Below, piece after piece: positions 43,689-60,563 of a DNA stretch of 64,000 nucleotides (position 1 is the stretch's first letter; the number at the start of each line of letters is the position of its first letter). A program made the translations under genes and the position numbers. The notes under the pieces were generated by a model. That model ran no database searches. It saw nothing but the letters and a program-made list of their open reading frames with translations, and had not been told where the DNA came from. The stretch lies in NCBI GenBank assembly GCA_001776785.1, contig MFDF01000006.1, forward strand, positions 16,769 through 80,768. The letters run 5' to 3'. Origin of the DNA: Candidatus Daviesbacteria bacterium RIFCSPHIGHO2_12_FULL_37_16 (GTDB lineage Bacteria; Patescibacteriota; Microgenomatia; Daviesbacterales; UBA10151).

Positions 43689-43769
43689 CGTATAAAGTTT
43701 ATCGGTTTCGATGCCCGTTTGGTTTAGGGGTTACGTTTAACGTCCAACTCCCTTACGATACTGGCTTCG

Positions 43770-44924: not shown

Positions 44925-45040
44925 TTCTTTATGAGTTTATATTTTCTTTCCTAAAATTGCAAAGCAATTTTGAAAGGAGGAACAGATGCAAACTGGAACA
45001 ATTCAGAAATTGTGGAAGTTGAAATCTTGTTCCGACGCAG

Positions 45041-45115
45041 TAGCAGGGGTGAGATTCGAACTCGACGATCTCGGCGTTATGAGTGCCGCGCTTTAACCAA
45101 CTAAGCTACCCTGCC
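45041..45115 (-). tRNA. tRNA with CAT anticodon (elongator Met or Ile2-lysidine type)
   Basis: Minus strand: acceptor GGCAGGG/CCCTGCT, D-arm GCTT-AGTTGGTTA-AAGC, anticodon loop CTCATAA, T-loop TTCGAAT. The T-stem pairs poorly as I read it, so a scan is needed. Confidence 0.55.
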
Positions 45116-45199
45116 ACGGAATGAATTTTAACAGAAACTTGCTCATCAGACAAACTTAATTGCAATCAAACAATTAAAAGATATATACTCATTTTTATT

Positions 45200-45478
45200 A
45201 TGAATGACATACAAAAAATGCTAAGAGCTATAATTAATGGACAAAGTGCCTTTAGACAGGAAGTATTAAGTAGGATTAATAACCTTGACCTAAAGATAGA
45301 TAAATTAGGCGAGAGATTAGAAGGAAAGATTGATAGTATAGAAGCTAAATTGACTAAACGATTAGACATAATTGGCAAGCAACTTGCCTACTTAGAAGAT
45401 GATGCTCCAACCAGAGAGGAATTTAATAATTTAGAAAAAAGGGTAGGTAAGATTGAGTCAAAAACCACTCAAGTCTAG
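45200..45478 (+). CDS. Small coiled-coil protein (hypothetical)
   Basis: 92 aa with heptad-like L/I spacing. Confidence 0.3.
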   Translation: MNDIQKMLRAIINGQSAFRQEVLSRINNLDLKIDKLGERLEGKIDSIEAKLTKRLDIIGKQLAYLEDDAPTREEFNNLEKRVGKIESKTTQV

Positions 45479-45657
45479 CTTACTACTAAACTTTTCTTTC
45501 GTTTTCCTTACCTAAATTTAGTTTTTATCTTATTTAAAATCTTCATAATTAAGATAATCAGGTTTGGGGGTAGGAAACTAAATTGCTGAGTTGGAAGAGA
45601 TAGGAGAGTTCACTAGTGTGATTTATTAAACTTTCCAAAACTACCCGGCCCTACCCT

Positions 45658-46341
45658 TCATCTGATTTTTTTTATACTTAATTTAACAAACCCTAAAATT
45701 ATCAGGTCAATAATTAAAGGCAGGCTTAAAAAAAGGTTGGCTTTTTTTAAGACCTCTACCATAGTTTGACCCCAGCCTGAAGATAAAATTGTATTAAAAT
45801 CCAAAAGTCCAACATAATAAAAAGCTATTAAAATTGCAAAAAGGATGGCAAAGACCATTAAAGTCCCTTCCATGTCTTTTTTGGAAGAAAACATAGTATT
45901 TGAGACTATAAAAATTAAATAAAACATCAAAGCCCAAACCCAGATAGATATTCCAGAAGAATTAGTAATATACCAGGAGATGCCAATTATTAAGCTTAAA
46001 CCTACTAATACAGGTGCTACTCCAATGATTGTCCTTCTTAAGGGGTCAGTTTTTTGAATTTGGGCACTACCCAGCTTTACCCCATCTTCCCTTATTTCAG
46101 GCATGAACTCAATATCAGATGACTCAACAAGCATCATGCCTGCTACTATGACATGGGCCAGCTCATGAATAATTGTTCCAGGCAAAAATAAAAAGGCTAA
46201 AAGACCAATTGTTTTTTTGTGGGAGTGGGTTAAAAAATAAAAAAGTGTCCCTAAAGATTTTAATAAAAGTTTGGAGACAAAATATATTAAAAAAAGCAGG
46301 ATAAAAAAGAGAGTTATCTGGATTGGGGTAGAATCCAACAT
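45658..46341 (-). CDS. Polytopic membrane protein with HExxH motif (putative membrane metalloprotease)
   Basis: TIIHELAHVIVAGMM lies within a TM-rich 227-aa protein. Confidence 0.35.
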   Translation of the reverse strand: MLDSTPIQITLFFILLFLIYFVSKLLLKSLGTLFYFLTHSHKKTIGLLAFLFLPGTIIHELAHVIVAGMMLVESSDIEFMPEIREDGVKLGSAQIQKTDPLRRTIIGVAPVLVGLSLIIGISWYITNSSGISIWVWALMFYLIFIVSNTMFSSKKDMEGTLMVFAILFAILIAFYYVGLLDFNTILSSGWGQTMVEVLKKANLFLSLPLIIDLIILGFVKLSIKKIR

Positions 46342-46370
46342 GAACTTAAGTATATAAGGCTAAAATCTAA

Positions 46371-46399
46371 TTGACAACTTATTATTAATAGCTGATACT
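46371..46399 (+). promoter_or_regulatory. Sigma70-like promoter (TTGACA-17 nt-GATACT) with strong SD GGAGG upstream of the small acidic protein/giant protein operon
   Basis: TTGACA at 46371-46376, GATACT at 46394-46399, AAGGAGGTGA at 46419-46428, ATG at 46436. Confidence 0.4.
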
Positions 46400-46435
46400 G
46401 AATTTAACCTATATTTTTAAGGAGGTGATTTTTAT

Positions 46436-46825
46436 ATGGATAATACTCAACAAATCTTACAGATACCTCCTGATGTAAGATCATTTCTTGAAGGATTATT
46501 AACTGATGCCGGGATGACAAGCTTAGATGATGAAATGCGCGAAGAGATGTTAAAAGAGCTCTACGGGCGGCTTGATAATCACTTAAGTGCAACTATTATT
46601 GATAACCTGCCTCCTGAGAATTTAGATGAATTTATTAAATTAAATGAGGATGGAAAAACCAAAGAAGAGATTGAAAGTTACCTTAAAGAGAAGATGCCTA
46701 ATGCCCAGGAGGTATTAGCAAAGGCATTTATAGAATTTAGAGATCTTTATTTGGGAAATGTAACTGTTGCCAGGAATGCTCCCCCATCAGAGAGTCAACC
46801 TAGTGAGGGAGGCCAGACAAACTAA
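46436..46825 (+). CDS. Small acidic protein, 7 bp upstream of the giant ORF (possible chaperone/partner)
   Basis: 129 aa rich in D/E. Consensus RBS. Intergenic gap of 6 nt to the giant gene. Confidence 0.5.
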   Translation: MDNTQQILQIPPDVRSFLEGLLTDAGMTSLDDEMREEMLKELYGRLDNHLSATIIDNLPPENLDEFIKLNEDGKTKEEIESYLKEKMPNAQEVLAKAFIEFRDLYLGNVTVARNAPPSESQPSEGGQTN

Positions 46826-46831
46826 AATAAA

Positions 46832-49800
46832 ATGGAGGGATCTGCCGAAGTTAGTTCTTCACCACCGCCTGCTGCAGAAACAGGGACAAGGCCTGAAGCT
46901 CGGGTAAAGGATACCCGCGAGCAAGTCTTAAATGCCTTTAACGGGGCATTAGACATTCTTGAAAATACTCCGGAAGATAAATTAACTACTCACGAAAGGG
47001 CTGGTAAAAAATTAATAAAGGAGGTCAAAGCTAAAACTTTAGACCAGGATAAGACTACATTTAGGAATAGGTTCAAAGATGCAGCTGGAAATGAATATTC
47101 ACAGATGGAGTCTGTGCCTGTAGATGACCTGATTGATTTTTTGACTGAAAGGATAAAAAGCAATGATCTATCTGAGCAACAATTACAGGATTATAGAGAT
47201 AAAAGAGCTGTGCTTATTAGAAACAGCAAGCCCTATTATAGACTGGGCAGAGGCAACCCATTAAGGCTTGATGCCCGAGTTGACCAGGAATTAAAAAGAT
47301 TAGAAGAGGCAGGATTAACAACTGGTGATGGTGCAGTAGATAAGGAAGCAGCTGGAGCAAGCCTAACCAAGAGGCGCGAGCTCATTTTGCCAAGGGTTGA
47401 CAGAGGAACTGAGCCACCCCCTGTAGAACCTCCACCACCTATAACTGAACCTCCTGAACAACCACCTATAGAACCACCCCCTCCTGTGGAACCACCACAA
47501 CCACCTCCTACTGCAGGTGAAGTTATGAGAGAGCTTTTAGTTGCTAATGGAACTTTGCAGGTTGGAAGAAGGGCAGCTGAGACAGCAGAGGTGCAGCTTA
47601 GAAATGAACTTAGAAGAGGCCAATGGTATGAATTTTGGCATTGGCCAAGAAAAATAGGAATGAGGGTTGCAGAACAATTTCATAGACAAAATTATATTGA
47701 GAGAGCAAGAGCAGCTATGCTTGAGCACAATAATACACTTGGGGATTTTGATGTTGTCCATAATGTTGCAAGAAATGCTCAGGCAAATATTGATCAGGAG
47801 AGAGCAGAAGGTAAGGCTAAAGTTGCCCAAATAAAATCTGGTGATCTGATTGCTGGTCAAAATGTAGTTGAAGCTACAGGTGAGCTTAAAAACATGATGA
47901 TAAATGATATTTTAAGGCCAGTTGTTGAAGGAAGGGTGACTGAGCAGGGCCAGATTCAGCAGGCTTTAAGGGATTTTGTCCAAAATCACCAAGGAGACCT
48001 GCAGGTCCAGGCTGTTTTTGGCAGGGATGCAACCCAATATGGAAGACTAGCTGAATATTTTGCATCAGATTTAACAGAGACAGCTGAACTTGTCAGATCT
48101 GACATTGAAGCTCACAGGTATGCTATAGACCAGCTTAGTCAGGTAGTAAAGATAAATTTGGCAAATACTTCATGGGCAGCAGAAAGCCAGGCTAACTTTA
48201 ATGCAGTAGATAGGGCTGTAGCCTGGGCAGAATCCCATCAACTGCGCGGCTGGCTTCTAAACCCAGCCACTATTGGAGCTGTGGCCTCTTTGGCTTCATT
48301 TGGAATAAGCAGAGCATTGGGAGCTGGGTCTGCTGCTGCAAATATTATTGCACCAGGAGCAGGAATGATTGCTGGTGCAGCAGTTGCAGGAGTAAGGAGA
48401 AGTTATGACTTAAAGGTGGACCGGGCTGCTGATCAGGTTGAGGAAACATATAATGGACAAGTTCCAGCTCAGGGAGCACCAAGAAGGGAGGCTTTAAGAG
48501 AATTTAGATACAATACAGCTTCAGTTAGAGATTTAATTAATGGAGGTGGGGATGAGCTTTTAGGCGGGGGCAGAAGATTGAGCATGGATCAGCTTTTAAC
48601 TCAGGATCTGTCAGATGGGCAAAATGATAACAGAGAAGCTGTTGTCAGAAGAATTTCTGAGATTAAATCCAGGCTTGATTTTTCTGCAACTGAACATGTG
48701 GATTTAGTGACTTTTGAAGCCAGAGGAAAGGTTGAACAAGGCAGAATGCAGCTTGTCCAGGAGCGGGCAAGGGCAAGGATTGCATTAAGAAATGCCGGGA
48801 TGCTTGATGATGAAATTTTAACTTTAGAGACCAGGTTGACAGGAGAGTGGAATGAGAGGTTTACCCAAAATAGAGAGCAGCAGGATCACAGATTCCAGCT
48901 TTACAGATTAAGGAATGCCGGGGGGGCTGCTTTGTTTGGTGCAGCTGTTGGACTGGCTGGAGGGTTGGCAATTCAGCAGGGAGAGGCCTGGATTGGCAGG
49001 GCTGTGCCAGGGTTGTCTGAGGCTCCAGTTGTGGGGGCACTTTTTGGAAAAGGCCAAACCAGGATTGAGGCAGCTTTTGGCATAGCAGGGCCTACTTCTC
49101 CTGAGAGGTTTAATGTGTTTGGAGTTGATTTAAATGAGGCTTTTGATAAGCCTAAAAACTTTGTGATGAAAAACCCTAACACTGGTGAGGAGTTTTGGAT
49201 GGCAATCCACCCTGAGGATATCAATAAAACAAGGGAGATAACTTTTCTGGATACTAATGGGAATAAGCTTGATGGGCCCGCCATGTGGCTTGAAAAGAGT
49301 GATGATGGCAAGGTGAGTATTATTGGGGCTGGGGACACAAATTTGATGCCTAAGCAAGTCCAGGAGCTGGTTGGGGGCTGGGACAAGAATACTACTGAAA
49401 CCCACAACTTGAGAAGCTATATGAAGTTTTTAACTAAGGGTGGAGTTGAGAATACCTCTGATGAGGTAGTCGAATATGGGAATTTTAGTTTGAACTCACA
49501 TGATGTGCATGAATCAATTTTATTAAATGATGAGGGCAAACCATATGATGTGTGGGCACAGGAGGCTGGGAGGCTAAAGCCAGATGGAACTCCTGAGGTT
49601 GGGAAGATGTCTGTGACCTTACTCCCTACCAAAACCCAATTTCATGGATTTTTAAGGGAGGATGGGTCATTTGATGTTGATCCTAAATATTTTGTAGATG
49701 GAAATTATAGAGGTAATGCAGATATAAACCCCACTGATTATCAGGATATGCTTGATAATTTAAAGGCTGAGGGTTGGGGTGTAGATACTGGAGGGGTAAA

Positions 49801-52156
49801 TGGGGACCATATAAGCGCACCTGAAACATTTGAATATACCCCACCAGAAGTGGAAATAAATGAAGCTCCAATAATTCCAATACCATTTGCCCCAAGACAC
49901 CCACTGGAACCATTAATAATTCCCCGCCCGCCGGAAAACCCATACTACCTTTTTGGTTATGAAATTTTTAGGATGCCTGATGGTTCAATTGGAACTCTTT
50001 CAGATTTTATGCGCATAAGATCAGATGAAGCTAGAAATAGAGTCCCAACAAGAGAAGGTGAGTCTGAAGGTGAGCATGCGCTGGCAACAATCAGAGATGC
50101 TTTTGACAATGCAGACAGGGTTTATATTGACCTTTCTGGAGCAATTGGAGATGCTATTATAACTTCAGCTTACATTGATGGAATAAGAAAGCTTAATGAG
50201 TCTGAAGGAAAAGATAGAAAAATAACTTTAATTGCGACTCCTTTAATAGAATCTCTGCTTAGACCTACAGCAGATAAGTATGGTTATGAACTAATAGAAG
50301 CTCCAAGAGGCGAAGGGTTTGATAAGGCCAAGTCTTTGATTGATGAGCGGGATGAACAAAATCCACTGGTTTTGGATTTTGAACACTATACAGGAATGCC
50401 TGAGATAGATACCTTGCCTAAAAATGGTCTCGTGATAAAGGATCTTTTTGCATCCTCAGTTGTGATGTATGACCAGCAAAGATCTGGTAATAATAGGTTT
50501 ACAGCTTTCTTTTCAGATCTCTTAAGTATTCCTGCGGATCAAAGGGTTGATGTTGCACCAAGAATTGAGCTTCCTGAAAATAGTGAGGAGATTTACCAAA
50601 GTTTGGTGGAAAGATTTAGAATTGATAAAAATAAGCCACAAATCACCATAATTTTAGAGTCCAGCCACAAAATGAAAAAGTATTCTTTGGATAATTGGAG
50701 GGATGTAATGGATAGACTTTCAAGGGATATTCCTAATGCAGAATTAAATATTATCTATAATCCAAGAAGTCCGGAATATGATCCTAATAGATTAAGAGAG
50801 ATATTTAATGGAATCCCCAGGTCTAGATTTGTTGGTGGAGATTTGGATGAAATGGCAGTACTTCTTTCTAAACAGCAGCTGGTAGTCTCTAACGATACTG
50901 GATTAGCTCATGTGGCTGCAACTCTAGAGGGTGGTCCAAGGGTACTAACTCTTCATGTACCAGTCTTTCCACCTAATGCATGGGTTACTAATTCTAACAG
51001 ACATGTTGGGCTTCTTCCAAGGAATGAGAGTTTAACAAATGATTTTAATTCTGAGGAAAGTGATGAGTCTAAGAAGTGGATAAATAAGATAACACCAGAA
51101 GAAGTTGTCAGAAGGGCAGTTATGATATACCAAAATAATCTTACATCTCCCCCTTCTGTGGAAGAAACAACAGACCCTGTAACTCCACCACCTGCACCTA
51201 GAGTTAGATTGGCTACTCCTACTCCAGAAGAGGAAGATATATCACCTTCCAGGTTAGAACAGTTGAGAAATAATGTTAGTGATTTGCGGGCTAGGGCTGC
51301 AGCTGCATCAGGGCCTGCAAGAAGAGGTTTAGTTGAAAGGTTGAATAGAGCTGAGGAAGCATTAAGTAATGTTCTTAGAAGAAGAGATGAAACAGTTTCA
51401 TCACCTGCCACTGTGCCTGTTCCTCCAACACCTACTCCACCAGAGGCTGCACCAGTCCCTCCTGCACCTGATTTACCATCTCCAGCTTTTAGAAGAACAG
51501 AGGCTACAATTCCTGTGCCACCACCTGCACCAAGAGTTAGAGTTGCACCTGCTCCTGCTCCCACTCTTACTCCTACCAGGGTAGAGACTGCTCCAATTCC
51601 AACACCAGAAACTCCTCCCCCACCACCAGCACCAAGAGTTAGAGTTGCTCCTACAACTACTGTTGAGGCTACAAGTGAAGCATTTGATACAGAAGCGCCT
51701 ATAAGTTCAGGTAATTTATTAGAATCAGTCAATGAAAAACTTACCAACTCTTCTTCAAATCTTGAAACTGTTTTGAGTACTCCATCTGCTTTGACTGAAT
51801 TTTTGAAAACCTTAGAGTTTAATTTCGGAGCTAAATTTAAAGATGCCCAAACTAGTATTTCCGGGCGTCAGATAATAATTAACAATGGAGTAATTGAAGT
51901 GCCTGGAGGTGAAGCTAAATTTAATGGAATACTTGCAATTGATCCACAGGGTAAATTAACTCTTTTGGGAGAACCTAAGATTGATTTACCATTTCATTTA
52001 GGACTTCTTAGAGGGAAAGTTAATGATGCGTTGAAAAATCTAGATCAATCAGTCAGGAGTCAAATAAACAAAAGAATTGATCAAAGCTGGGAAGTGTCAG
52101 GATTTAATATTGACAGTGGGAATTTAGCTGTAGACTTTAGAAGACAAACTACTTAA
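46832..52156 (+). CDS. Giant (1774 aa) multidomain proline-rich protein with an embedded GT9-like (heptosyltransferase-fold) glycosyltransferase domain
   Basis: Single uninterrupted ORF. PPVEPPPPITEPPEQPP linker. Gly/Ala-rich hydrophobic segments at ~aa 520-575 and ~730-750. GT9 signature SGAIGDAIITS...LVVSNDTGLAHVAATLEGGPRVLTLH. Three PPAPRVR(V/L)A repeats. GC visibly higher than the neighbouring DNA. Confidence 0.7.
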   Translation: MEGSAEVSSSPPPAAETGTRPEARVKDTREQVLNAFNGALDILENTPEDKLTTHERAGKKLIKEVKAKTLDQDKTTFRNRFKDAAGNEYSQMESVPVDDLIDFLTERIKSNDLSEQQLQDYRDKRAVLIRNSKPYYRLGRGNPLRLDARVDQELKRLEEAGLTTGDGAVDKEAAGASLTKRRELILPRVDRGTEPPPVEPPPPITEPPEQPPIEPPPPVEPPQPPPTAGEVMRELLVANGTLQVGRRAAETAEVQLRNELRRGQWYEFWHWPRKIGMRVAEQFHRQNYIERARAAMLEHNNTLGDFDVVHNVARNAQANIDQERAEGKAKVAQIKSGDLIAGQNVVEATGELKNMMINDILRPVVEGRVTEQGQIQQALRDFVQNHQGDLQVQAVFGRDATQYGRLAEYFASDLTETAELVRSDIEAHRYAIDQLSQVVKINLANTSWAAESQANFNAVDRAVAWAESHQLRGWLLNPATIGAVASLASFGISRALGAGSAAANIIAPGAGMIAGAAVAGVRRSYDLKVDRAADQVEETYNGQVPAQGAPRREALREFRYNTASVRDLINGGGDELLGGGRRLSMDQLLTQDLSDGQNDNREAVVRRISEIKSRLDFSATEHVDLVTFEARGKVEQGRMQLVQERARARIALRNAGMLDDEILTLETRLTGEWNERFTQNREQQDHRFQLYRLRNAGGAALFGAAVGLAGGLAIQQGEAWIGRAVPGLSEAPVVGALFGKGQTRIEAAFGIAGPTSPERFNVFGVDLNEAFDKPKNFVMKNPNTGEEFWMAIHPEDINKTREITFLDTNGNKLDGPAMWLEKSDDGKVSIIGAGDTNLMPKQVQELVGGWDKNTTETHNLRSYMKFLTKGGVENTSDEVVEYGNFSLNSHDVHESILLNDEGKPYDVWAQEAGRLKPDGTPEVGKMSVTLLPTKTQFHGFLREDGSFDVDPKYFVDGNYRGNADINPTDYQDMLDNLKAEGWGVDTGGVNGDHISAPETFEYTPPEVEINEAPIIPIPFAPRHPLEPLIIPRPPENPYYLFGYEIFRMPDGSIGTLSDFMRIRSDEARNRVPTREGESEGEHALATIRDAFDNADRVYIDLSGAIGDAIITSAYIDGIRKLNESEGKDRKITLIATPLIESLLRPTADKYGYELIEAPRGEGFDKAKSLIDERDEQNPLVLDFEHYTGMPEIDTLPKNGLVIKDLFASSVVMYDQQRSGNNRFTAFFSDLLSIPADQRVDVAPRIELPENSEEIYQSLVERFRIDKNKPQITIILESSHKMKKYSLDNWRDVMDRLSRDIPNAELNIIYNPRSPEYDPNRLREIFNGIPRSRFVGGDLDEMAVLLSKQQLVVSNDTGLAHVAATLEGGPRVLTLHVPVFPPNAWVTNSNRHVGLLPRNESLTNDFNSEESDESKKWINKITPEEVVRRAVMIYQNNLTSPPSVEETTDPVTPPPAPRVRLATPTPEEEDISPSRLEQLRNNVSDLRARAAAASGPARRGLVERLNRAEEALSNVLRRRDETVSSPATVPVPPTPTPPEAAPVPPAPDLPSPAFRRTEATIPVPPPAPRVRVAPAPAPTLTPTRVETAPIPTPETPPPPPAPRVRVAPTTTVEATSEAFDTEAPISSGNLLESVNEKLTNSSSNLETVLSTPSALTEFLKTLEFNFGAKFKDAQTSISGRQIIINNGVIEVPGGEAKFNGILAIDPQGKLTLLGEPKIDLPFHLGLLRGKVNDALKNLDQSVRSQINKRIDQSWEVSGFNIDSGNLAVDFRRQTT

Positions 52157-52213
52157 ATGGAAGGGTTGGATGCTTCTTTTGAACATGATCCCAAGTTAGT
52201 TTCAGGTTTTAAT

Positions 52214-52474
52214 TTAGGATCTTGGGCCTGGGTTTGACCAATCATGGAATCTTTCAGCACCCCTGGCAACATGGTATGCCCCATCAGAAATACCTTTTCT
52301 TACCTGGTAACTTACTTCTTCTATTGCTTCCCCTGTTTTATTAACTAGTCCGAATTTATATTCTAAAACTGCACCTGTTCCAACAAGCAATAAAGCTCCT
52401 GCTAGACCTGTTCTGACAATATTTTCTCTTATGCCTGAAACTCTTTCTCTCATAATTGTTATGGGATAATACAA
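52214..52474 (-). CDS. Small hypothetical membrane protein
   Basis: 86-aa ORF with one hydrophobic helix. Confidence 0.25.
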   Translation of the reverse strand: MYYPITIMRERVSGIRENIVRTGLAGALLLVGTGAVLEYKFGLVNKTGEAIEEVSYQVRKGISDGAYHVARGAERFHDWSNPGPRS

Positions 52475-52480
52475 TATGTC

Positions 52481-52729
52481 TTATAGTTTGTCAAGAAGCC
52501 TCAATTTCTCTTCCCTGCTCCAGGATTTTATCTCTATTTCCCTTTTTAGAGCTTCTGATTTAGTTTTAAAAATTTCTTTATAAATAATTTTTAAGGGCTT
52601 GTGGGATCTGGTGTAGCTGCCGCCTTTTCCATTTTGGTGGCTTAAAAACCTTTTTTCTAAGTTATTAGTTGAGCCTGTATAGAGTGAATTATCTCTGCAA
52701 AGAAGTATATATACAAACCACATTACCAA
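52481..52729 (-). CDS. GIY-YIG domain protein (UPF0213-like small nuclease)
   Basis: FVYILLCRDNSLYTGSTNNLEKR contains the GIY...YIG-type motif. Confidence 0.6.
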   Translation of the reverse strand: MVMWFVYILLCRDNSLYTGSTNNLEKRFLSHQNGKGGSYTRSHKPLKIIYKEIFKTKSEALKREIEIKSWSREEKLRLLDKL

Positions 52730-52737
52730 TAATTCTA

Positions 52738-53031
52738 TCAGTCAGTGTCTTCAAAGCCACCATGGTTTCTAATGGCATCCTGGGTTTTTTTGAGGTTTGA
52801 GAGGGCTTTTTCTTTACCATAAGTTAAGTTAGTCTGAACCATTTTTTTATAGTAAGTTTTCCACTCTTTAGAAGTAATTTTGTTAGTTATATCTATTGAA
52901 CTACCTTCTAAAAGTCCATCCTTCCAGCAAAGAATTTTTACCACTAATTTGTGCCAAAGCTCCCTTTTTTCAAATTTTTCCAGGTAGGCAGCTTTAATAT
53001 TTGGATGATTTGATATACTTGGTACTCTCAA
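52738..53031 (-). CDS. Hypothetical protein
   Basis: 97-aa ORF. Confidence 0.25.
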   Translation of the reverse strand: MRVPSISNHPNIKAAYLEKFEKRELWHKLVVKILCWKDGLLEGSSIDITNKITSKEWKTYYKKMVQTNLTYGKEKALSNLKKTQDAIRNHGGFEDTD

Positions 53032-53041
53032 AAAATTAAAT

Positions 53042-53398
53042 TTACCTTCTGTGGCTGCCTCTTAAGAAGCTGCCTCCACCACCTCTTTTAGAGTTGTCTC
53101 TTCCAGAATAAGAATTGTTGTTTCTGTTTTGGTTGTAGCCTCCTCTATTATCTTCTCTTGGTCTGGCAACTGAAACTCCAATTTTTCTGCCTTCAAGTCC
53201 AAAGCCATCAAGTTCTTTGATAGCAGTTTGGGCTTCAGTGTCATTTGGCATTTCTACAAAAGCAAAACCTTTTGACTGGTTTGTGTATTTATCCATGATA
53301 ATTTGGGCTGAAGAAACTGTTCCATACTTTTCAAATAATTCTTTTAATTTTTCATTTGTTAAAGAGAAAGGAATACCTCCAATAAATAATTTAGTCAT
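53042..53398 (-). CDS. RRM-domain RNA-binding protein with Gly/Arg-rich tail
   Basis: RNP-2 LFIGGIP and RNP-1 KGFAFVEM, with a C-terminal RGG/G-rich tail. Confidence 0.75.
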   Translation of the reverse strand: MTKLFIGGIPFSLTNEKLKELFEKYGTVSSAQIIMDKYTNQSKGFAFVEMPNDTEAQTAIKELDGFGLEGRKIGVSVARPREDNRGGYNQNRNNNSYSGRDNSKRGGGGSFLRGSHRR

Positions 53399-53499
53399 AA
53401 ATTTTCACCACCTTTTTTTTGGATTTAAACTTTTAATGGAAGTGTTTAGGGTCAAATATTTAAACTGCAAACATTAAATGAGTTTAAAGAGTATAACAG

Positions 53500-53522
53500 C
53501 TATGGGGTGGGAATACAAGGAA
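53500..53522. repeat. 23-bp direct repeat CTATGGGGTGGGAATACAAGGAA (copy 1), 6 nt from the stop of the 53529-54134 ORF
   Basis: Identical 23-mer recurs at 54174-54196. Confidence 0.6.
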
Positions 53523-53528
53523 AGCGAG

Positions 53529-54134
53529 TTAGTTAGGGATTATCAGTTTTGGTTTATCCTGTAATCTTGTAATAGGCTGGTCAGCCATAGGGCAACGTAA
53601 ATATTGATCCATGCAGTCCCATTCAGATGCTGTACAAAGACCTAATCTATAACCTTCAGGAAGCATAAGTAATGGAGCATCCCCTTCTCTAACTTCAACT
53701 AAGGGTTTGCGTGCTCTTTGCGCATAAACATTTTCAGATCTTAAACCTACAACAAAATGATGTTCTTCTATTTGAGTCACAAACATAACTAACCATGGTT
53801 TAGCTTGACCATCAAATTCAGGAAGAGAATTTGGATGATAACTTACAGCTAGAAGTTCATGCGTGGCTGGAATTTTAGCTAATTCTCTTTCTACATCTTC
53901 TTTGTAGATTTGCATCCTTCCTTCACTCTTGTCCACAATTGCCATATCTTTTGGTGTATATTCAAACTCAGCTCCAAATGCTTGTAATATATTTAAAGCA
54001 GTGTTTATTGGTCCTGGTAGGTTTGCAAGCCACTCACGTCTGGTATTAATTTTATCTAAGGCTGCTTCCTTTTCTTCTGCCGCTTCTCTAAAATATCCAT
54101 ATGCGCCTCTTAAATCTGGGTTTATATCTAACAT
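53529..54134 (-). CDS. Hypothetical protein, a GC-richer single-gene unit flanked by 23-bp direct repeats
   Basis: 201-aa ORF. Composition differs from the flanking DNA. Confidence 0.4.
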   Translation of the reverse strand: MLDINPDLRGAYGYFREAAEEKEAALDKINTRREWLANLPGPINTALNILQAFGAEFEYTPKDMAIVDKSEGRMQIYKEDVERELAKIPATHELLAVSYHPNSLPEFDGQAKPWLVMFVTQIEEHHFVVGLRSENVYAQRARKPLVEVREGDAPLLMLPEGYRLGLCTASEWDCMDQYLRCPMADQPITRLQDKPKLIIPN

Positions 54135-54173
54135 ATTAGGGAAATTATACTTAAATTTTACTAAAAGTCAAAC

Positions 54174-54196
54174 TATGGGGTGGGAATACAAGGAAG
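54174..54196. repeat. 23-bp direct repeat CTATGGGGTGGGAATACAAGGAA (copy 2)
   Basis: Identical to 53500-53522. Confidence 0.6.
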
Positions 54197-54322
54197 TGGA
54201 CAGAAGAGATGTAGATATGGGAGATAAAATTATTAAGAGGAAGATCGAGGAAAAATAATATCCAGAAGAGGGTGTCTACGTTGTGGACTTTAAAAAATAC
54301 AGCTTTGAGTGTATAATACAGG

Positions 54323-54396
54323 CGCGGGGTAGAGCAGTGGTAGCTCGGGAGGCTCATAATCTCCAGGTCAGTGGTTCGAATCCACTCCCCGCAACA
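54323..54396 (+). tRNA. Initiator tRNA-fMet (CAT anticodon, C1·A72 mismatch)
   Basis: Acceptor CGCGGGG/CCCCGCA, identical to the E. coli tRNA-fMet acceptor. D-arm GAGC-AGTGGTA-GCTC, loop CTCATAA, T-arm AGTGG-TTCGAAT-CCACT. Confidence 0.75.
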
Positions 54397-54402
54397 GATT
54401 TG

Positions 54403-54430
54403 AAAATCCGTCCAAAGGATGGATTTTTCA
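54403..54430 (+). terminator. Hairpin/terminator after tRNA-fMet
   Basis: AAAATCCGTCC-AAAG-GGATGGATTTT stem-loop followed by TC. Confidence 0.4.
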
Positions 54431-54505
54431 AAGCTAGTTGTTGGAGACGGGATCGAGAATCGGATCTTTGATCCGGTTCGACAATTTCTTTAGAAATTGG
54501 GACAT

Positions 54506-54522
54506 ATCCACTCCCCGCAACA
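54506..54522. repeat. 17-bp direct duplicate of the tRNA-fMet 3' end (ATCCACTCCCCGCAACA); att-site-like remnant
   Basis: Identical to 54380-54396, about 110 bp downstream. Confidence 0.55.
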
Positions 54523-54544
54523 CAACTTCCTGCTCTTCTAATCC

Positions 54545-55288
54545 ATGGCTGAAAGAAGAAGACCTACACCTGAAGAAACCTCTAGGTCAATACTTGCTTT
54601 AAAAATTCATGCTGCTAATTTATCTGATGCTAAGGGTGTTGATTTTGGGAAAGTATTAGAAAATGGAGATAATCTTCAAATCCGATTAGATTATCTTAAT
54701 AATGAGTCCAGAAGAAGTATCCCAGATCCCCTATTAAGGTTTGCAAAAAGAGTGTATGGAAGGGAAGTTCTAATTAGAAATATTACCTTGTGGTGGGTAA
54801 ATCAGATTAAAGGAGAGGTGGCAGAGGAAAATTTATACAGCAATGTTATTGAAATTTTAGTCAGGCCTCCTGGAAGTACATCAGGTCTGGAAAATCAGCA
54901 CATGGCTATTGTTGACCAAAAAAATGAATTGCTTACTGATAACCTACTTTGGTTGAGGCTAGAAGAAAACCGTGCAAGCTGGTCGGTTAACTACAATCTA
55001 GCGAAAGAGATATATAGTACAGAAGATCATGTTTTAACACCCCAAAGAAAAGAAGGTAATCTTGTTCCAAGAATTATAGATTCGCTATCAGCTATATTAT
55101 CTTCAGTCAAAGAGGACAGGTTGGGAAAATTTAGCCCTCAAGATCTTTTAAGACCTTCAAGACAACTTGGTATACAAACAGCTGCAGTATTTTTAGATAA
55201 ATATTTACCACAGTTGCCTTCACCTGTAAAACAGCCTGTCTGGGGAGTTTTTGTAATTGACAGAGATTCAAATTTGCTGACTATCTAA
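54545..55288 (+). CDS. Hypothetical protein
   Basis: 247-aa ORF. Confidence 0.35.
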   Translation: MAERRRPTPEETSRSILALKIHAANLSDAKGVDFGKVLENGDNLQIRLDYLNNESRRSIPDPLLRFAKRVYGREVLIRNITLWWVNQIKGEVAEENLYSNVIEILVRPPGSTSGLENQHMAIVDQKNELLTDNLLWLRLEENRASWSVNYNLAKEIYSTEDHVLTPQRKEGNLVPRIIDSLSAILSSVKEDRLGKFSPQDLLRPSRQLGIQTAAVFLDKYLPQLPSPVKQPVWGVFVIDRDSNLLTI

Positions 55289-55634
55289 AAAATAGCTTTA
55301 ACCACCCTTGCCAGTTTGGGAGTTTGGGCTCCTCTACCTTTTTTTGGGCATTGATTAAGTTATTTATTAAATCCTCCTGAATAATAACTACAGTCTCATT
55401 TGGTCTCCCTAAATTTAGGTTATTTCTGGCTATTTGTTCTATAAATTCGAAGCTTTTGGTGTTTTCCAGTTTTTGCTTTAATGCTCTATTCTCAGCCTGG
55501 AGTGAATTTACCTCATCTGTGGCAGTATCCAACCTTGACCCAGCCTCAAGGGCATCTTTAATTTGGCGCACCAAGCCTATCAAAATTACTATTGAGATTA
55601 TAAAAATAACCAGCAAACTTACAGTTTTTGACAT
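55281..55634 (-). CDS. Septum-formation initiator-like (FtsB/DivIC-like) membrane coiled-coil protein
   Basis: N-terminal TM then coiled coil (LQAENRALKQKLENTK). Confidence 0.45.
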   Translation of the reverse strand: MSKTVSLLVIFIISIVILIGLVRQIKDALEAGSRLDTATDEVNSLQAENRALKQKLENTKSFEFIEQIARNNLNLGRPNETVVIIQEDLINNLINAQKKVEEPKLPNWQGWLKLFFR

Positions 55635-55723
55635 GGATTTTAGTAATTTATCTTTTTTTTGTGCTTATTTTTATGCTTCGAGGCTATTTCCTCATTGACA
55701 TTTGTAGGGTTTAGATATATATT

Positions 55724-56605: not shown

Positions 56606-56616
56606 AGAGATTCTGA

Positions 56617-57006
56617 ATGTTCTCCCCGGAAAGTTTAGTTAAATGGTATTTTACTCCTAAACCTTTTGAAAAAGATGGTAAAGTTTATGAACAACTTGGC
56701 ATCAAACACCTTGAGAAACTAGTAGTTATGATTGGTACTCACTTCAACTCTACGCACTACTTTCTAAAAGACTTCTCAATTTCTTCACTCACTCACTATG
56801 AAATGAATACTCGATTTTTTGAATCTACCCATTTAAAAGGATTTGGAGCTTTAGTGGTAGCGGCGGTGATTGTTAGTCCCTTAACTCGAGAAGGAGCAGC
56901 TATTGCTATTGCTGGAGCAGGAATGAACTTAGCGTTGGTAGCTTTACAACGATATAACAGAAGTCGAATTTACTCAATTTACGATAGAAAGGGTCTTGAT
57001 CACTAA
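56617..57006 (+). CDS. Hypothetical protein
   Basis: 129-aa ORF with a hydrophobic C-terminal half. Confidence 0.3.
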   Translation: MFSPESLVKWYFTPKPFEKDGKVYEQLGIKHLEKLVVMIGTHFNSTHYFLKDFSISSLTHYEMNTRFFESTHLKGFGALVVAAVIVSPLTREGAAIAIAGAGMNLALVALQRYNRSRIYSIYDRKGLDH

Positions 57007-57076
57007 TCTATCGGCTGGTGCGCGGACTATACACCCAATTCCCGTTTCACTCGAATTGCAGGATTTGAATTTAGTG

Positions 57077-57101
57077 TGGAGCAGCCTGGACTCGAACCAG
57101 G
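57077..57101 (-). other. Orphan tRNA 3' fragment (T-arm CCTGG-TTCGAGT-CCAGG plus acceptor strand CTGCTCCA) without a 5' half
   Basis: Read on the minus strand. No complementary GGAGCAG within several hundred bp. Its sequence differs from the adjacent intact tRNA. Confidence 0.45.
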
Positions 57102-57111
57102 AACTAATATG

Positions 57112-57182
57112 TAGGCCCGGAAGGAATCGAACCTTCGTCATGACTGTATAAGAATCAGGCATTACCATTATGCAACGGGCCT
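57112..57182 (-). tRNA. tRNA with TAT anticodon (putative tRNA-Ile UAU)
   Basis: Minus strand: acceptor AGGCCCG/CGGGCCT, D-arm GCAT-AATGGTA-ATGC, anticodon stem TGATT/AGTCA with loop CTTATAC, T-arm GAAGG-TTCGATT-CCTTC. Confidence 0.55.
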
Positions 57183-57317
57183 ATCGCGCTAATTGTACCA
57201 AAAAAGTCCACTTTTTTCTCCCTAAGAGTCTGAAATTGCCTTTATAGATAAGTATCAAAATAGTACACCCTAAGGGTGAATTAGCTAGGACACCTAGCCT
57301 TTATATGATTTGTATAG

Positions 57318-57372
57318 ATTCCCGATCCCGTCTTCGCTGCGCTTCGGCAGGGCAAGCAAGTCGGGAATGACA
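57318..57372. repeat. Palindromic repeat element, copy E (…TTCCCGATCCC…CTTCGCTGCGCT…CGGGAATGACA)
   Basis: Shares the 12-mer CTTCGCTGCGCT with copy D and the GAATGACA terminus with the others. Confidence 0.45.
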
Positions 57373-57382
57373 GAGGGTGCGG

Positions 57383-59743
57383 TTATAGTCTGGCGCGGTT
57401 GGAGATTTCGGCTTCTACCATAGTTCTATCCCTGCCATAGGTTAACCTGGAGAGTTCTTTAATTGCCCTTCCTACATCAGGCCTTAACATAGCTTTCCAG
57501 GCTTTCATATCCTTAATAGTTGAAACAGAAAAAGGCGGGACAGGCTCACCTGCAACCTGAGTTTTCATATATACATGAAAGGCTTCAATATTGACTAAAT
57601 CTTTTTCATCAAAGATTGGTTGGAATTCATGCTGCAGGAAGCTAGCATCTGTTACTCCAACCCTAAAGGCTACAACTGACCCTACATTTCCAAAAACTGC
57701 ATTTTTTAAATCTTCCCCTATCTGGCCAATAAACTGATTGGCTACTGTTAAATTTAACCTGTATTTTCTGGCCTCAGATAAAATCTCTGCAAAGGTGTCT
57801 GTGGCGAAATTTTGAAACTCATCAACATAAAGATAAAAATCCCTTCTCTGGTCTACAGGCATATCTGCCCTGGACATGGCAGCAGCCAGTAGTTTTGGCA
57901 CCAAGACTAATCCCAGGAAGTTTGAGTATTCCTCCCCTATCCTTCCTTTAGAGAGGTTAACAATTAAGATCTTTCCTTCATCCATGACTTTTCTTAAGTT
58001 AAATGAAGACTCTGACTGGCCAATAATATTTCTCATCATGATGTTGGTGACAAAGCGGCCAAATTTGGAAACATTGTAGTCTAAGATCTCTGATTTGTGG
58101 AAGTCTGCAGTCTGGGCAATCTGGTCAGTCCAATACCTTCTGACAACAGGGTCACCAACATAGGGCAATAACTCTTTGACAAACTCAGGGTCTGTTAAGA
58201 CTCTAACAACCTCTAAAAATGTTCCGCCGGGACGGGACATAACAGTAAGCATGGCGTTTCTGACATTGTGTTCAAAGCGGGGGCCAATGATACCTGTTTT
58301 ATTTGGATCATAAAGTTTGTACATAAGTCCTATAATTGAGGCCACCACAAAGTGCTTTTGTTCTTCTGAGGTAGCTTCAAGCATGTTCACACCCATAGGC
58401 CTGTCTGTATCTGATGGGTCAAAGTAGATAACATCCTGGGCCCTATTGGGCGGGATAAGCTCCAACATCTCCTCTGCTGCATCACCGTGGGGATCAATAA
58501 AACATAAACCCTTGCCTGCATGGATGTCCTGGATCATTAAGGTTTTTAAAAGCTCTGATTTTCCTGTACCAGTCCTTCCGATAATATACATGTGCCTTCT
58601 TCTGTCATCCTCTGAAATATAGACAGGCCGTTCAACTCCCCTAAAGACAGATTTTCCTATATATAACCCAGAAGTTGGGATCTTTTCAGGAGCAGGTGCA
58701 GACTTGGCTGGCAGCCAGGTGATGTGAGGGGTTTCAATGGCTTTTGATGGAAAATGAAAAACAGAGGCTATCTCATCTGATGTTAAAACTGGCAATCTGT
58801 CAAAGCGTGGTAAGTATCTGTAAATAAAGTCTTTAATAAAACCTTTTTCAGAGCGAGTTTTCATGCCTGAGAAACCATTGTAAGGGCCATTAAACTGCTC
58901 AAATGAGGCCTTAATATTAGACAAATGTGCCCTGGCTGCTTCTTTTGAGGTAGAAGAGGTGACAATCCTGATAACTGCATTAAAGCCTGATTTTTGGATT
59001 TTTCCTTCAACTGCTTCAATTTGTTTTTGGTCGGGGGGGGCTTTAGGTTTTTCTCCATCTCCAGGGTCCCTTTCTTTTTTTATAAACTTTTTACCAGGCT
59101 CTTTCCACTTTCCATCTGCCGGGGCAATGATCATTTGGACTACTGCTCCCTCCCCTGGCTGCATTTTGGCTAAAGCTGATGTTAAACCGGAGAGGGGATC
59201 TGTTGGCAGGTCTTTATAAGTTTTTATTGGGAAGTAATTATTAGCTCTAAGCCCCAGCATGGTGTAGGCTACCTCACCTGTTTCTGAAAAGATGTTATAT
59301 TCAGGGACTTCTTTTATTGAGGCATCAGGGTAGGCTCCATTAATCTGCTTTTCTACCAGATCCTGGAATTTTTTATGACAGGAGACATAAAATCTGATGG
59401 ATTCAGGCAAGGCTACAATTTCAAAGGTGATGTGGGGCTGGGGCCTCAAAAAATCAAGCCAACTAATAAACCCGCCTGAGGTTTTAATAGAGTAAAGGGC
59501 GCTCATTAATTGTTCTGCTGCGTCTATTTTTATCTCATTTCCCCTGGGGATTGTGACCTGGAGGAGGACAAAACCTAATGAGTATTGTTCCCTGTCCCTA
59601 TATTTATACCAGCCTATGATGTGAGGCAAAAAATAATAGATTAGGCCTGCAATGGATAAAATGGCAGTAATAATACCTCCTGCTATTAGAAGCAGGCTGA
59701 AAAAATTAAAATTTTGTGGGGTTTGGGCAAGTTGAGCTTCCAA
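57383..59743 (-). CDS. VirD4/TraG/TraD-like coupling-protein ATPase (T4SS DNA-transfer family, FtsK/HerA superfamily)
   Basis: N-terminal TM helix. Walker A GRTGTGKS, then FIDPHGD, and Walker B LYVDEFQNF. Confidence 0.5.
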   Translation of the reverse strand: MEAQLAQTPQNFNFFSLLLIAGGIITAILSIAGLIYYFLPHIIGWYKYRDREQYSLGFVLLQVTIPRGNEIKIDAAEQLMSALYSIKTSGGFISWLDFLRPQPHITFEIVALPESIRFYVSCHKKFQDLVEKQINGAYPDASIKEVPEYNIFSETGEVAYTMLGLRANNYFPIKTYKDLPTDPLSGLTSALAKMQPGEGAVVQMIIAPADGKWKEPGKKFIKKERDPGDGEKPKAPPDQKQIEAVEGKIQKSGFNAVIRIVTSSTSKEAARAHLSNIKASFEQFNGPYNGFSGMKTRSEKGFIKDFIYRYLPRFDRLPVLTSDEIASVFHFPSKAIETPHITWLPAKSAPAPEKIPTSGLYIGKSVFRGVERPVYISEDDRRRHMYIIGRTGTGKSELLKTLMIQDIHAGKGLCFIDPHGDAAEEMLELIPPNRAQDVIYFDPSDTDRPMGVNMLEATSEEQKHFVVASIIGLMYKLYDPNKTGIIGPRFEHNVRNAMLTVMSRPGGTFLEVVRVLTDPEFVKELLPYVGDPVVRRYWTDQIAQTADFHKSEILDYNVSKFGRFVTNIMMRNIIGQSESSFNLRKVMDEGKILIVNLSKGRIGEEYSNFLGLVLVPKLLAAAMSRADMPVDQRRDFYLYVDEFQNFATDTFAEILSEARKYRLNLTVANQFIGQIGEDLKNAVFGNVGSVVAFRVGVTDASFLQHEFQPIFDEKDLVNIEAFHVYMKTQVAGEPVPPFSVSTIKDMKAWKAMLRPDVGRAIKELSRLTYGRDRTMVEAEISNRARL

Positions 59744-60209: not shown

Positions 60210-60488
60210 TTACCAGAAAATTAAAACTTTGCCCAATATTTTTGATCTGTCTACTTCACCAAAGTCTTTTGAGTCTAGAGTATTATCCCCTTCCACTTTA
60301 TATTTTTCACTTTCCACTTTAATAATTCTTTTAATAATAAATTTTTTATCTGATTTAAAAATAATTAAGTCATTTACTTTTGGTGGAGAAAAAAGGTAAG
60401 GCAAGAAACTGGCTATGACAAACTGACCAGGGTTTAGGGTGGGAACCATAGAGTGGCCTGAGACTTCAAATTTAGATAGCAATATCAT
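60210..60488 (-). CDS. sodX: NiSOD maturation peptidase SodX (S26/S24 signal-peptidase-like)
   Basis: GHSMVPTL catalytic Ser motif. Immediately downstream of sodN. Confidence 0.6.
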   Translation of the reverse strand: MILLSKFEVSGHSMVPTLNPGQFVIASFLPYLFSPPKVNDLIIFKSDKKFIIKRIIKVESEKYKVEGDNTLDSKDFGEVDRSKILGKVLIFW

Positions 60489-60494
60489 ATAAGC

Positions 60495-60555
60495 TTGTCA
60501 TTCCCGCGGAAGCGGGAATCCAGAACGCTGGATCCCCGATCATGTCGGGGATGAC
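60495..60555. repeat. Palindromic repeat element, copy C, between sodN and sodX
   Basis: TGTCATTCCCGCGGAAGCGGGAATCC ... ATCCCCGATCATGTCGGGGATGACA contains three nested hairpins and terminal TGTCAT/ATGACA. Confidence 0.55.
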
Positions 60556-60563
60556 ACTTTGTG

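Follow-up and report, generated by a model that had tools for sequence, protein, structure and literature searches.

Free-standing homing-endonuclease genes (HEGs) provide one precedent for small genes beside tRNA genes: phage T4 carries SegB, a free-standing GIY-YIG homing-endonuclease gene, in a tRNA gene cluster, free-standing HEGs of fungal mitochondria duplicate the 3′ end of their host gene, and the free-standing GIY-YIG genes of both the T4 tRNA region and fungal mitochondria spread by homing. Partial tRNA copies are also a recognised by-product of element integration (PMC9897764). In Patescibacteria, a 2025 survey found homologues of the VirD4-like type IV coupling protein (T4CP) in 2,918 of 3,035 genomes; nearly all of these lie far from virB4, relaxases are rare, and exaptation was judged possible (PMC12102498). 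Here we analyse a 64-kb stretch of DNA (the window), which is also represented by contig AMFJ01012009 of a groundwater metagenome and whose closest named relatives are Candidatus Daviesbacteria (Microgenomates/OP11), and in particular its 45–60 kb part, in which tRNA genes, a duplicated tRNA 3′ end, a small GIY-YIG gene, a tyrosine recombinase gene and the gene of a P-loop ATPase lie together.

This part had been read, from the sequence alone, as a tRNA-bounded and compositionally distinct island with an integrase, tRNA debris and an ATPase like the coupling proteins of type IV secretion systems (T4SS). The sequence features behind this sequence-only reading are present, whereas island status does not hold. 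ARAGORN and Rfam each find all three tRNAs, the tail of tRNA-fMet has an exact second copy downstream, a T-arm and acceptor piece lies beside tRNA-Ile, and the tyrosine recombinase, GIY-YIG, RRM and giant proteins are encoded as described (Table 1). We nonetheless hold, with good confidence, that the 45–60 kb part is normal chromosome of a Daviesbacteria-like bacterium (Microgenomates, candidate phyla radiation (CPR)), and that its tRNAs bear the scars of micro-scale local insertion and of tRNA-gene replacement.

Gene order around the recombinase and the ATPase

The ATPase served as query to fetch loci of relatives from 185,579 genomes, with a single locus taken for each species. A relative of the ATPase is encoded in at least 594 genomes; the best 80 loci were kept, and the window's proteins and all tRNAs were mapped onto them. 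Synteny was counted over the 51 species-level loci that extend at least 5 kb beyond the ATPase, and additional, closer relatives were reached through recombinase or tRNA searches. Individual loci are referred to below by handles such as L006.

The backbone that emerges runs in the order ATP-citrate-lyase (ACL)-like genes, tRNA-Met, a variable stretch, tRNA-fMet, FtsB/DivIC, a Xer-type recombinase, tRNA-Ile(UAU), a membrane ATPase of the HerA/FtsK/T4CP superfamily, an S26 peptidase, a nickel superoxide dismutase (Ni-SOD) and TrxR. The tRNA-Ile(TAT) gene adjoins the ATPase gene in 36 of the 51 loci, and a recombinase homologue occupies the same position in 25; tRNA-Ile, recombinase and tRNA-Met stand in the window's order in 23/51, and an FtsB/DivIC homologue adjoins Xer in 18/51. 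At the left end, tRNA-Met adjoins an ACL-beta homologue in L044, L005, L011 and L087 as well. Loci with the block span Davies-, Levy-, Woese-, Gottesman-, Collier- and Shapirobacteria and Dojkabacteria-level relatives, and include some in which ATPase identity is as low as 43–47%. Recombinase identity correlates with ATPase identity (Spearman 0.77, p = 8e-8, n = 34). Closer relatives, with Xer proteins 78–84% and ATPases 78–85% identical to those of the window, keep the order FtsB, Xer, tRNA-Ile, ATPase, S26, Ni-SOD, TrxR; their cargo differs. The retained order together with the co-divergence of recombinase and ATPase shows vertical co-inheritance of a chromosomal block, and neither protein is part of a mobile element.

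The same comparison bears on the proposal that the region is a decayed integrative, possibly conjugative, element, integrated at a tRNA by a XerC-like integrase and carrying a VirD4-like coupling ATPase. Such an element would account for the presence, within 15 kb, of a tyrosine recombinase, a weakly T4CP-like P-loop ATPase, three tRNAs, a tail repeat and many lineage-specific ORFs; as in an integrative and conjugative element (ICE), recombinase, tRNA and T4CP-like ATPase come within 5 kb of one another. All three of these apparent hallmarks are, however, conserved chromosomal genes: across the superphylum the recombinase and ATPase genes keep their synteny with both tRNA positions and with the genes on either side and diverge in parallel, and the same order, recombinase included, is kept at every depth of relationship, which refutes the island all the more strongly. 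T4CP-like genes are moreover core in CPR bacteria, and the supposed island genes GIY-YIG, p97 and TM227 are common to relatives. The tRNAs do not delimit an island; the sole tRNA-derived direct repeat brackets 109 nt without a gene, and the recombinase lies 1.2 kb outside that interval. Pfam scans of the window ORFs found no VirB4, relaxase, transposase or phage genes across the 64 kb, so that the conjugative partners sought for the ATPase are missing from the window.

Composition likewise gives no support to an island. The giant ORF has a GC content at third codon positions (GC3) of 0.284, close to the window mean (0.279 ± 0.052), and genes in the 45–57 kb interval range from 0.21 to 0.38. 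The 42–46% GC at 47–50 kb is due to the first and second codon positions of the giant protein, which is rich in Ala, Gly, Pro and Arg; the conserved genes of the ATPase and of TrxR match it in GC-richness (42–43%), and the GC-rich hypotheticals that had been reported within 47–52 kb are shadow ORFs antisense to the giant gene. Nor is there presence/absence variation: an identical recombinase occurs on contigs from many samples (22 read), the 7 examined are 99.9–100% identical across the region, scars included, and a search for empty/occupied polymorphism among same-species contigs found none, all being ~100% identical. The region fails every defining test of an ICE, and we give a decayed element next to no credence.

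Assignment of the recombinase and the ATPase

The recombinase scores 157, 155 and 152 bits against the NCBIfam models of XerC, XerD and XerA, all below the equivalog cutoffs (335 for XerC and 330 for XerD). Its best matches in the PDB are Escherichia coli XerD (1a0p, 92.7 bits) and archaeal XerA, and alignment with XerD shows Arg-I, Arg-II, His-III and Tyr to be conserved. At the position of the β-hairpin Lys of E. coli XerD the protein has Val, and at the first His of HxxR it has Asn, as do its orthologues in L006 and L086; this mismatch may reflect a local shift of the alignment or an atypical family. Compared with the Xer/dif systems (XerC/XerD and archaeal XerA), the recombinase agrees in length and in its two-domain architecture, its gene is conserved in syntenic position by vertical inheritance, and it adjoins a divisome gene; it differs in scoring far below the XerC/XerD equivalog cutoffs, in the unaligned Lys and first His, and in that no dif site was found near the gene. 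A naive ATAA-N6-TTAT scan gave AT-rich chance matches only, none near xer, and alignment of the xer–ftsB intergenic region revealed promoter-like TTGAC/TATAAT boxes and no dif. Conservation and synteny nevertheless mark the protein as what appears to be the resident Xer-like enzyme of the lineage. FtsB/DivIC, Xer and the membrane ATPase are conserved neighbours, an arrangement that hints, by analogy with FtsK–XerCD, at a segregation or dimer-resolution module.

The ATPase is membrane-anchored, and DUF87 (the HerA central domain) is the only Pfam model above cutoff for it in our scan; its N-terminal DUF8128 domain comes from precomputed Pfam hits. Every T4CP model scores below cutoff (T4SS-DNA_transf 17.8 against 20.1, TrwB_AAD_bind 18.3 against 20.5, TraG-D_C 19.2 against 22, SXT_TraD 57.8 against 366), and the best PDB match, TrwB, reaches 21.7 bits over 48 residues of the P-loop region only. 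What had been called VirD4/TraG-like is thus a sub-threshold P-loop resemblance. The protein shares with the chromosomal T4CP homologues of Patescibacteria (PMC12102498) its membrane anchor, P-loop ATPase character and weak similarity to TraD, TrwB and VirD4, and like theirs its gene is chromosomal with no virB4 or relaxase nearby; it differs in its sub-threshold score for all T4CP Pfam models, in carrying DUF8128, and in having Xer and FtsB, and no T4SS parts, as conserved neighbours. Because T4CP homologues are near-universal on Patescibacteria chromosomes, the ATPase is no evidence for conjugation; it is a phylum-wide chromosomal T4CP-like gene.

The tRNA-fMet tail copy and the mini-insert

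A promoter-like TTTAAA-17-TATAAT sequence ends at 54317, upstream of tRNA-fMet. The last bases of this gene lie in a 17-mer, ATCCACTCCCCGCAACA, that occurs exactly twice, at 54380–54396 and in the downstream copy; 100 shuffles yielded 0 second copies with 2 mismatches allowed. The copy runs from T-loop position ~59, including the last two T-loop bases, to the discriminator and 2 nt of trailer, and because the copied trailer reads ACA rather than CCA, a DNA-level event is indicated. The intervening mini-insert opens with a terminator-like hairpin (about 54398–54434) followed by a multi-hairpin segment, with a predicted fold of −49.4 kcal/mol (z = −5.2). Directly before the tail copy stand GGTTCGA and a 24-nt hairpin (CAATTTC-TTTA-GAAATTG..), so that the downstream element resembles a T-arm with an interrupted loop. 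Positions 49–65 of the mini-insert match window positions 57317–57333 at 16/17 (blastn), where the hairpin element GTCATTCCCGAC...GCGAAGACGGGATCGGGAATC separates the ATPase stop codon from tRNA-Ile. ARAGORN calls no tRNA in the mini-insert, and Rfam returns no family for it (the window at the gathering threshold, 54250–54650 at the E-value threshold).

A metagenome scan with the T-arm and tail of tRNA-fMet yielded 4 loci only (L085 to L088), too few for covariation analysis. The metagenome contig L085, which shares the tRNA tail, is arranged likewise: its copies are 172 nt apart, and the hairpin is homologous to that of the window and carries one compensatory pair. The closest relative, L086 (ATPase 83%, Xer 78%), has an identical tRNA-fMet T-arm and tail in a single copy, and so represents an unoccupied site in a different species rather than in another strain. 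Repeats of this kind are known as the partial copies that insertions at tRNA genes leave behind (PMC9897764), and the window shows the same-strand downstream copy, the sharp boundaries starting in the T-loop and the intact tRNA, now with a new terminator, of a tRNA 3′-end insertion scar or of a remnant resembling a cis-mobilizable element (CIME). It departs from such scars in that the repeats are 109 nt apart and enclose neither an integrase nor any other gene.

The strength of the predicted fold, with its cloverleaf-like four-way junction, raises the alternative that the 109-nt segment and tail copy constitute a functional structured RNA, either a tRNA-like or minihelix element or a leader of ORFan p247, whose identity to the tRNA is kept by selection or gene conversion. 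The pre-tail hairpin is indeed kept in L085 with its compensatory change, and the p247 start codon follows the tail copy at a distance of 22 nt. Against this, no Rfam or tRNA model matches, RNAalifold gave no convincing consensus structure for five inserts that bear the motif described below, p247 is an ORFan, the segment is missing from L086 despite the same tRNA, and the left arm owes its complementarity to having arisen as a copy of the T-stem. We therefore regard a functional RNA as improbable, and an insertion scar remains the preferred reading. Hammerhead ribozyme, crRNA-like guide, casposon-type insertion with target-site duplication and terminal inverted repeats, and integron attC were also considered for the insert and dropped by eye, as core motifs, terminal inverted repeats and associated genes are lacking.

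A different interruption occurs in two Daviesbacteria relatives, where the orthologous tRNA-fMet is split in the anticodon loop by an insert of ~250–280 nt (L097:5482-5815 (-) and L087:4549-4901 (+)). From end to end the L097 insert fits Rfam Intron_gpI, with a score of 41.5 bits (E = 2.7e-9) where the gathering score is 50.

Tail duplications and GIY-YIG genes in relatives

The duplication in the window is not an isolated case. Same-strand downstream copies of the 3′ tail accompany 8 of 120 tRNAs in the window and the loci, and L085 adds one. They are 13–20 nt long, start at T-loop positions 55–59, end at the discriminator plus 0–2 nt, and lie 50–771 nt from the tRNA; no long-range copies were found within 10-kb flanks. 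The tRNAs concerned are tRNA-fMet, an elongator tRNA-Met, tRNA-Ile, tRNA-Ser and tRNA-Glu. No insert contains an integrase; those that code for protein encode GIY-YIG or a toxin–antitoxin pair. The insertions hit the region from T-loop to 3′ end, regenerate the tRNA and displace the old tail.

A jackhmmer search of all ORFs of the loci (1.44 Mb) identified 17 small GIY-YIG proteins or ORFs, 4 of which lie at most 51 nt from a tRNA, inside or beside partial tRNA duplications. L018 has tRNA-Ile(TAT), a 33-nt hairpin, the GIY-YIG ORF and a degenerate tRNA-Ile tail, and L081 has tRNA-Glu, the ORF and an exact 18-nt tail copy, so that in both the ORF lies between the tRNA and its displaced tail. 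L046 is a variant, with a tRNA-Pro-like copy whose T-arm is replaced, the ORF and then the real tRNA-Pro, and in L036 the ORF lies between two tRNA-Ser genes. An L018-type cassette also follows an orphan T-arm and acceptor in L039, and the homology between L018 and L039 starts exactly at the tRNA 3′ end. The insert of the window contains no such ORF. Upstream of the window-type GIY-YIG genes of L044 and L018, at ~100 nt, stands a tRNA-fMet tail.

The L018-type ORF ends in a recognisable way. Its last codons (..SLP, stop) and 3′ hairpin form the motif GTTTAYCCYGAG(C..)CGAAGGG, of which there are 8 exact core copies in the 1.44 Mb against ~0.7 expected, the latter being a uniform-composition estimate. 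Where inserts have lost the ORF, in L036, L024 (twice) and L068, the motif stands directly before the tail copy, and these are 'ends-only' derivatives; Rfam matches in the inserts of these three loci are tRNAs only. What relatives carry as an intact insert thus codes for one small GIY-YIG nuclease and nothing else, and the derivatives without the ORF retain both ends. In the window, the insert sequence GGAGACGGGATC resembles the 3′ half of the motif as well as the hairpin element between the ATPase and tRNA-Ile genes, and derivation of the insert from a GIY-YIG cassette is plausible on this resemblance.

Sites of the ~30-nt motif were recorded at L009:393-417, L018:12806-12830, L031:20035-20055, L036:9053-9078, L041:7621-7646 and L063:7519-7538, in L024 (two), and on the viral contigs L100:423-443 and L101:381-401. 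The motif recurs across several Microgenomates candidate phyla, stands alone in intergenic sequence except in L018, and has no Rfam match.

These data also bear on the chief alternative for the repeat itself, namely that the two 17-mers are the attL and attR of a tyrosine integrase borne by a phage, plasmid or island, which inserted at tRNA-fMet and whose element was then mostly deleted to a CIME-like remnant. An identity block from T-loop to tRNA end, in direct orientation and with a new terminator after the tRNA, is the textbook footprint of such an event (PMC9897764); in L058 and L014 the tail copy is immediately preceded by a T-arm-like mimic, which is what an attR would show, and a 772-bp insert in L044 carries a VapBC-like module and no nuclease. 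On the other side, all 9 tail duplications in ~1.4 Mb are at most 771 nt apart and enclose no integrase or multi-kb element, the conserved ends of several inserts match the GIY-YIG cassette, unlike random deletion products, and a search of viral contigs for the tail sequence turned up no attP, its single match there being a jumbo-phage tRNA cluster that we attribute to chance or to tRNA-level similarity. An integrase scar is accordingly a serious but unlikely explanation.

Alleles and fossils of tRNA-Ile(TAT)

Bacteria normally read AUA with a lysidine-modified CAU tRNA, and a tRNA-Ile with a UAU anticodon is unusual. In this clade a genomically encoded UAU anticodon is the rule (the window and 36/51 loci), at a conserved position. 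The alleles of close relatives are very different from one another, and we distinguish an A-type (AGGCCCG..), a G-type (GGAGCAG..), a C-type (GGGCGGA..) and an R-type (GCGCGGA..). The window contains an A-type gene, followed by a G-type tail, the conserved flank of the G-type, which ends in ATTGGGTGTATA, and an R-type tail end. L006 is the reciprocal, with a G-type gene, the same flank and an A-type tail. A C-type tail follows an A-type gene in L004, heterologous tails lie downstream of the functional tRNA-Ile in L039 and L050, and a heterologous 5′ half lies upstream of it in L010. These comparisons show that whole tRNA alleles replace one another and leave 3′ relics, and the debris beside tRNA-Ile is thus a fossil record of serial tRNA-gene replacement and not a sign of an island.

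Two further observations concern these genes. At L096:13880-14060 an R-type tRNA-Ile is split in the anticodon loop by a ~105-bp insert, a tRNA-in-tRNA insertion: the insert contains a complete G-family tRNA-Ile(TAT) and has 10-nt inverted ends, ATTAAAATTT and AAATTTTAAT, and TA on both sides. In addition, tRNA-fMet and tRNA-Ile(TAT) are oriented differently in L086, L097 and L044 than in the window, L006, L011 and L087, at the same positions, which implies that the tRNA genes have been inverted or re-inserted in place.

Variable slots beside the tRNAs

The cargo of the slots beside the tRNA genes is a different one in each relative. The spacer between the two tRNA-Met genes is 9.2 kb in the window against 66 bp–1.8 kb in relatives; here it contains p92, TM227, a DUF5663 protein, a 1774-aa giant protein with a GT9 domain, p86, GIY-YIG, p97, RRM and the ORFan p201. 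GIY-YIG and p97 are common to the window, L044, L086 and L087, and TM227 and p97 to the window and L097. A perfect 23-bp direct repeat, CTATGGGGTGGGAATACAAGGAA, brackets p201 (53500–53522 and 54173–54195; 0 expected by chance); its outer flanks are unrelated. The repeat copy on the upstream side of p201 borders the −35 box of this gene's promoter-like site; no homologues of p201 were found outside its own population.

Between tRNA-fMet and FtsB/DivIC the window has p247, for which homologues were found in its own population only, among 5.8 billion proteins. Pfam, NCBIfam and PHROG searches gave no matches for either ORFan, p247 or p201. The slot holds a membrane protein in L006, a two-component system in L011, p228, unrelated to p247, in L097, and 10–40 bp in many others. 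The slot between Xer and tRNA-Ile contains a CrtO-like gene that is missing from all relatives, where one finds a 146-aa ORF, p146 (L006), VapBC (L011), GNAT and others (L086, L096, L097, L099) or nothing (L004, L005). The suggestion of a hotspot of repeated integration therefore holds at a much smaller scale, that of tRNA-adjacent slots, tail copy and tRNA debris, and fails for a large element.

The position of Xer between two tRNAs, with differing modules of one to three genes per relative in the adjoining slots, toxin–antitoxin modules among them, could suggest that the resident Xer uses tRNA T-arms as pseudo-dif sites and shuffles one-gene modules in the manner of integrons or pdif modules, and the perfect repeat around p201 might be read likewise. 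Tail duplications also occur far from any Xer, however (tRNA-Glu in L081, tRNA-Ser in L036), a dif-like 11-6-11 palindrome was found neither near xer nor in the repeats, the 23-bp repeat has no dyad symmetry, and the slots are fixed within the species of the window. We consider Xer-driven shuffling very improbable.

Other genes of the window

The remainder of the window is housekeeping in character, with a purine biosynthesis cluster, Pth, DNA ligase, RecF, Pol I, FtsH, an aminoacyl-tRNA synthetase and the ACL-like genes. The last are three adjacent genes resembling subunits of ATP-citrate lyase or citryl-CoA synthetase/lyase, and genes of this kind stand beside tRNA-Met in the four relatives named above too. 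The purine cluster is near-complete for de novo synthesis; CPR bacteria are generally described as lacking nucleotide biosynthesis, which makes it notable. The Ni-SOD gene adjoins that of its S26-type maturation peptidase, a pair kept in relatives, and a lineage-specific BrnT/BrnA-like toxin–antitoxin pair sits between this pair and TrxR.

Table 1. Features of the window (positions are those of the 64-kb stretch).
Feature	Position	Strand	Evidence or remark
De novo purine biosynthesis cluster	486-13185		fused PurS/PurL, PurQ, PurA, two archaeal-type PurP (DUF1246/DUF1297) paralogues, PurB, PurE, PurC, PurM-like gene
ACL-like genes	42059-44924		ATP-grasp_2 + Citrate_bind; CoA_binding + Ligase_CoA; short citrate-synthase-like ORF
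tRNA-Met(CAT), elongator-like	45040-45115	-	ARAGORN; Rfam 55.3 bits; left backbone anchor beside ACL-like genes
Variable slot between divergent tRNA-Met genes	45200-54134		
GIY-YIG protein, 82 aa	52481-52729		
RRM protein	53042-53398		
ORFan p201	53529-54134	-	inside 53500-54195
tRNA-fMet, initiator-type tRNA-Met(CAT)	54323-54395	+	ARAGORN, Rfam; C1 x A72 mismatch, no intron
Mini-insert between 17-mers, 109 nt	54397-54505	+	
Copy of tRNA-fMet 3′ end, 17 nt	54506-54522	+	17/17 identical
ORFan p247	54545-55288	+	fills tRNA-fMet/FtsB-DivIC slot
FtsB/DivIC septum-formation protein	55281-55634	-	Pfam DivIC 48.9 bits; backbone
Xer-like tyrosine recombinase, 293 aa	55724-56605	+	Phage_integrase 101 bits, Phage_int_SAM_1 53 bits
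CrtO-like small membrane protein	56617-57006	+	Pfam CrtO 67.5 bits; lineage-specific cargo
Nested tRNA-Ile(TAT) fossils	57018-57110	-	
Tail end GTCCGCGCAC of GCGCGG-type allele, 10 nt	57018-57027	-	
Tail of GGAGCAG-type allele, 33 nt	57077-57110	-	directly abuts 3′ end of tRNA-Ile
Functional tRNA-Ile(TAT), AGGCCCG-type allele	57111-57182	-	ARAGORN, Rfam
Hairpin element between ATPase stop codon and tRNA-Ile	57310-57375	-	
Membrane-anchored P-loop ATPase, 786 aa	57383-59743	-	DUF8128 + DUF87/HerA-FtsK-T4CP superfamily; core CPR gene
Ni-SOD with S26-type maturation peptidase, and BrnT/BrnA-like toxin–antitoxin pair	60210-61061 and 61487-62067		

A possible route of insertion

The anatomy of the scars suggests the following course of events. 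A short DNA segment entered the 3′ end of tRNA-fMet, bringing a new copy of the T-loop-to-3′-end region and its own terminator, and the original tail was thereby pushed 109 nt downstream. The insert of the window may be what is left of a GIY-YIG cassette that lost its ORF and kept its ends. Such a cassette could spread as a free-standing HEG does, its nuclease cutting an empty tRNA locus and double-strand-break repair copying the occupied allele into the cut locus. At tRNA-Ile(UAU), whole alleles have been replaced repeatedly, and every time the 3′ tail of the allele that was lost stayed behind immediately downstream; these replacements could also have come about by homology-facilitated illegitimate recombination following DNA uptake.

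In its broadest form, this model holds that the tRNA genes of CPR/Microgenomates are targets of tiny selfish cassettes, each with one 80–110-aa GIY-YIG gene, conserved ends and sometimes a whole replacement tRNA; that the tRNA is regenerated on insertion; that 13–20-nt tail duplications, ORF-less 'ends-only' miniatures and fossils of displaced tRNA alleles are left behind; and that the 17-mer, the 109-nt insert and the tRNA-Ile relics of the window are products of this process. We put it forward tentatively, as a possibility that falls well short of being probable. Like the free-standing GIY-YIG HEGs, relatives have a small ORF immediately 3′ of an intact tRNA and then a displaced tail copy, and their frequent ORF-less remnants with both ends are what a homing cycle of invasion, degeneration and loss predicts. 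A full-text search of incomplete coverage found no paper that links GIY-YIG and tRNA genes in Patescibacteria, which is weak evidence of novelty.

Several points weigh against the account given here. As regards the chromosomal block, Xer is missing from it in about half of the 51 loci, and with no dif site found, it is conservation that speaks for a housekeeping role of this enzyme. A near-identical strain pair with empty and occupied sites was not found, so that mobility is deduced from between-species comparison only. A 17-nt repeat starting in the T-loop is equally expected from a tyrosine integrase. As regards the cassette, the window holds a putative remnant only: its 109-nt insert has no canonical GIY-YIG 3′ motif, the similarity of CTAGTT..GGAGACGGGATC to CTGAGTT..GGAGTCGAAGGGATC is short and was found by eye, and the GIY-YIG gene of the window is 1.6 kb distant, across the tRNA from the insert and outside the repeats. 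The putative nucleases of 80–110 aa, whose cleavage activity is likewise putative, differ from known GIY-YIG HEGs in having no obvious DNA-binding domain. Finally, the loci were gathered around one tRNA-rich block, which biases the statistics of association between tRNA and GIY-YIG genes.

Implications

When islands are called automatically in streamlined genomes of uncultivated bacteria, this locus counsels caution. A tyrosine recombinase found together with tRNAs and a T4CP-like ATPase marks, in CPR bacteria, a conserved chromosomal neighbourhood and no mobile element, and in these tiny genomes the flanks of tRNA genes are sites of single-gene gain and loss. From the scars one may suspect a class of GIY-YIG mini-cassettes, possibly undescribed, that target tRNA genes, as well as replacement, one after another, of the unusual tRNA-Ile(UAU) gene. 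Should this be confirmed, gene flux and tRNA turnover would have a concrete mechanism in bacteria where classical mobile elements are few.

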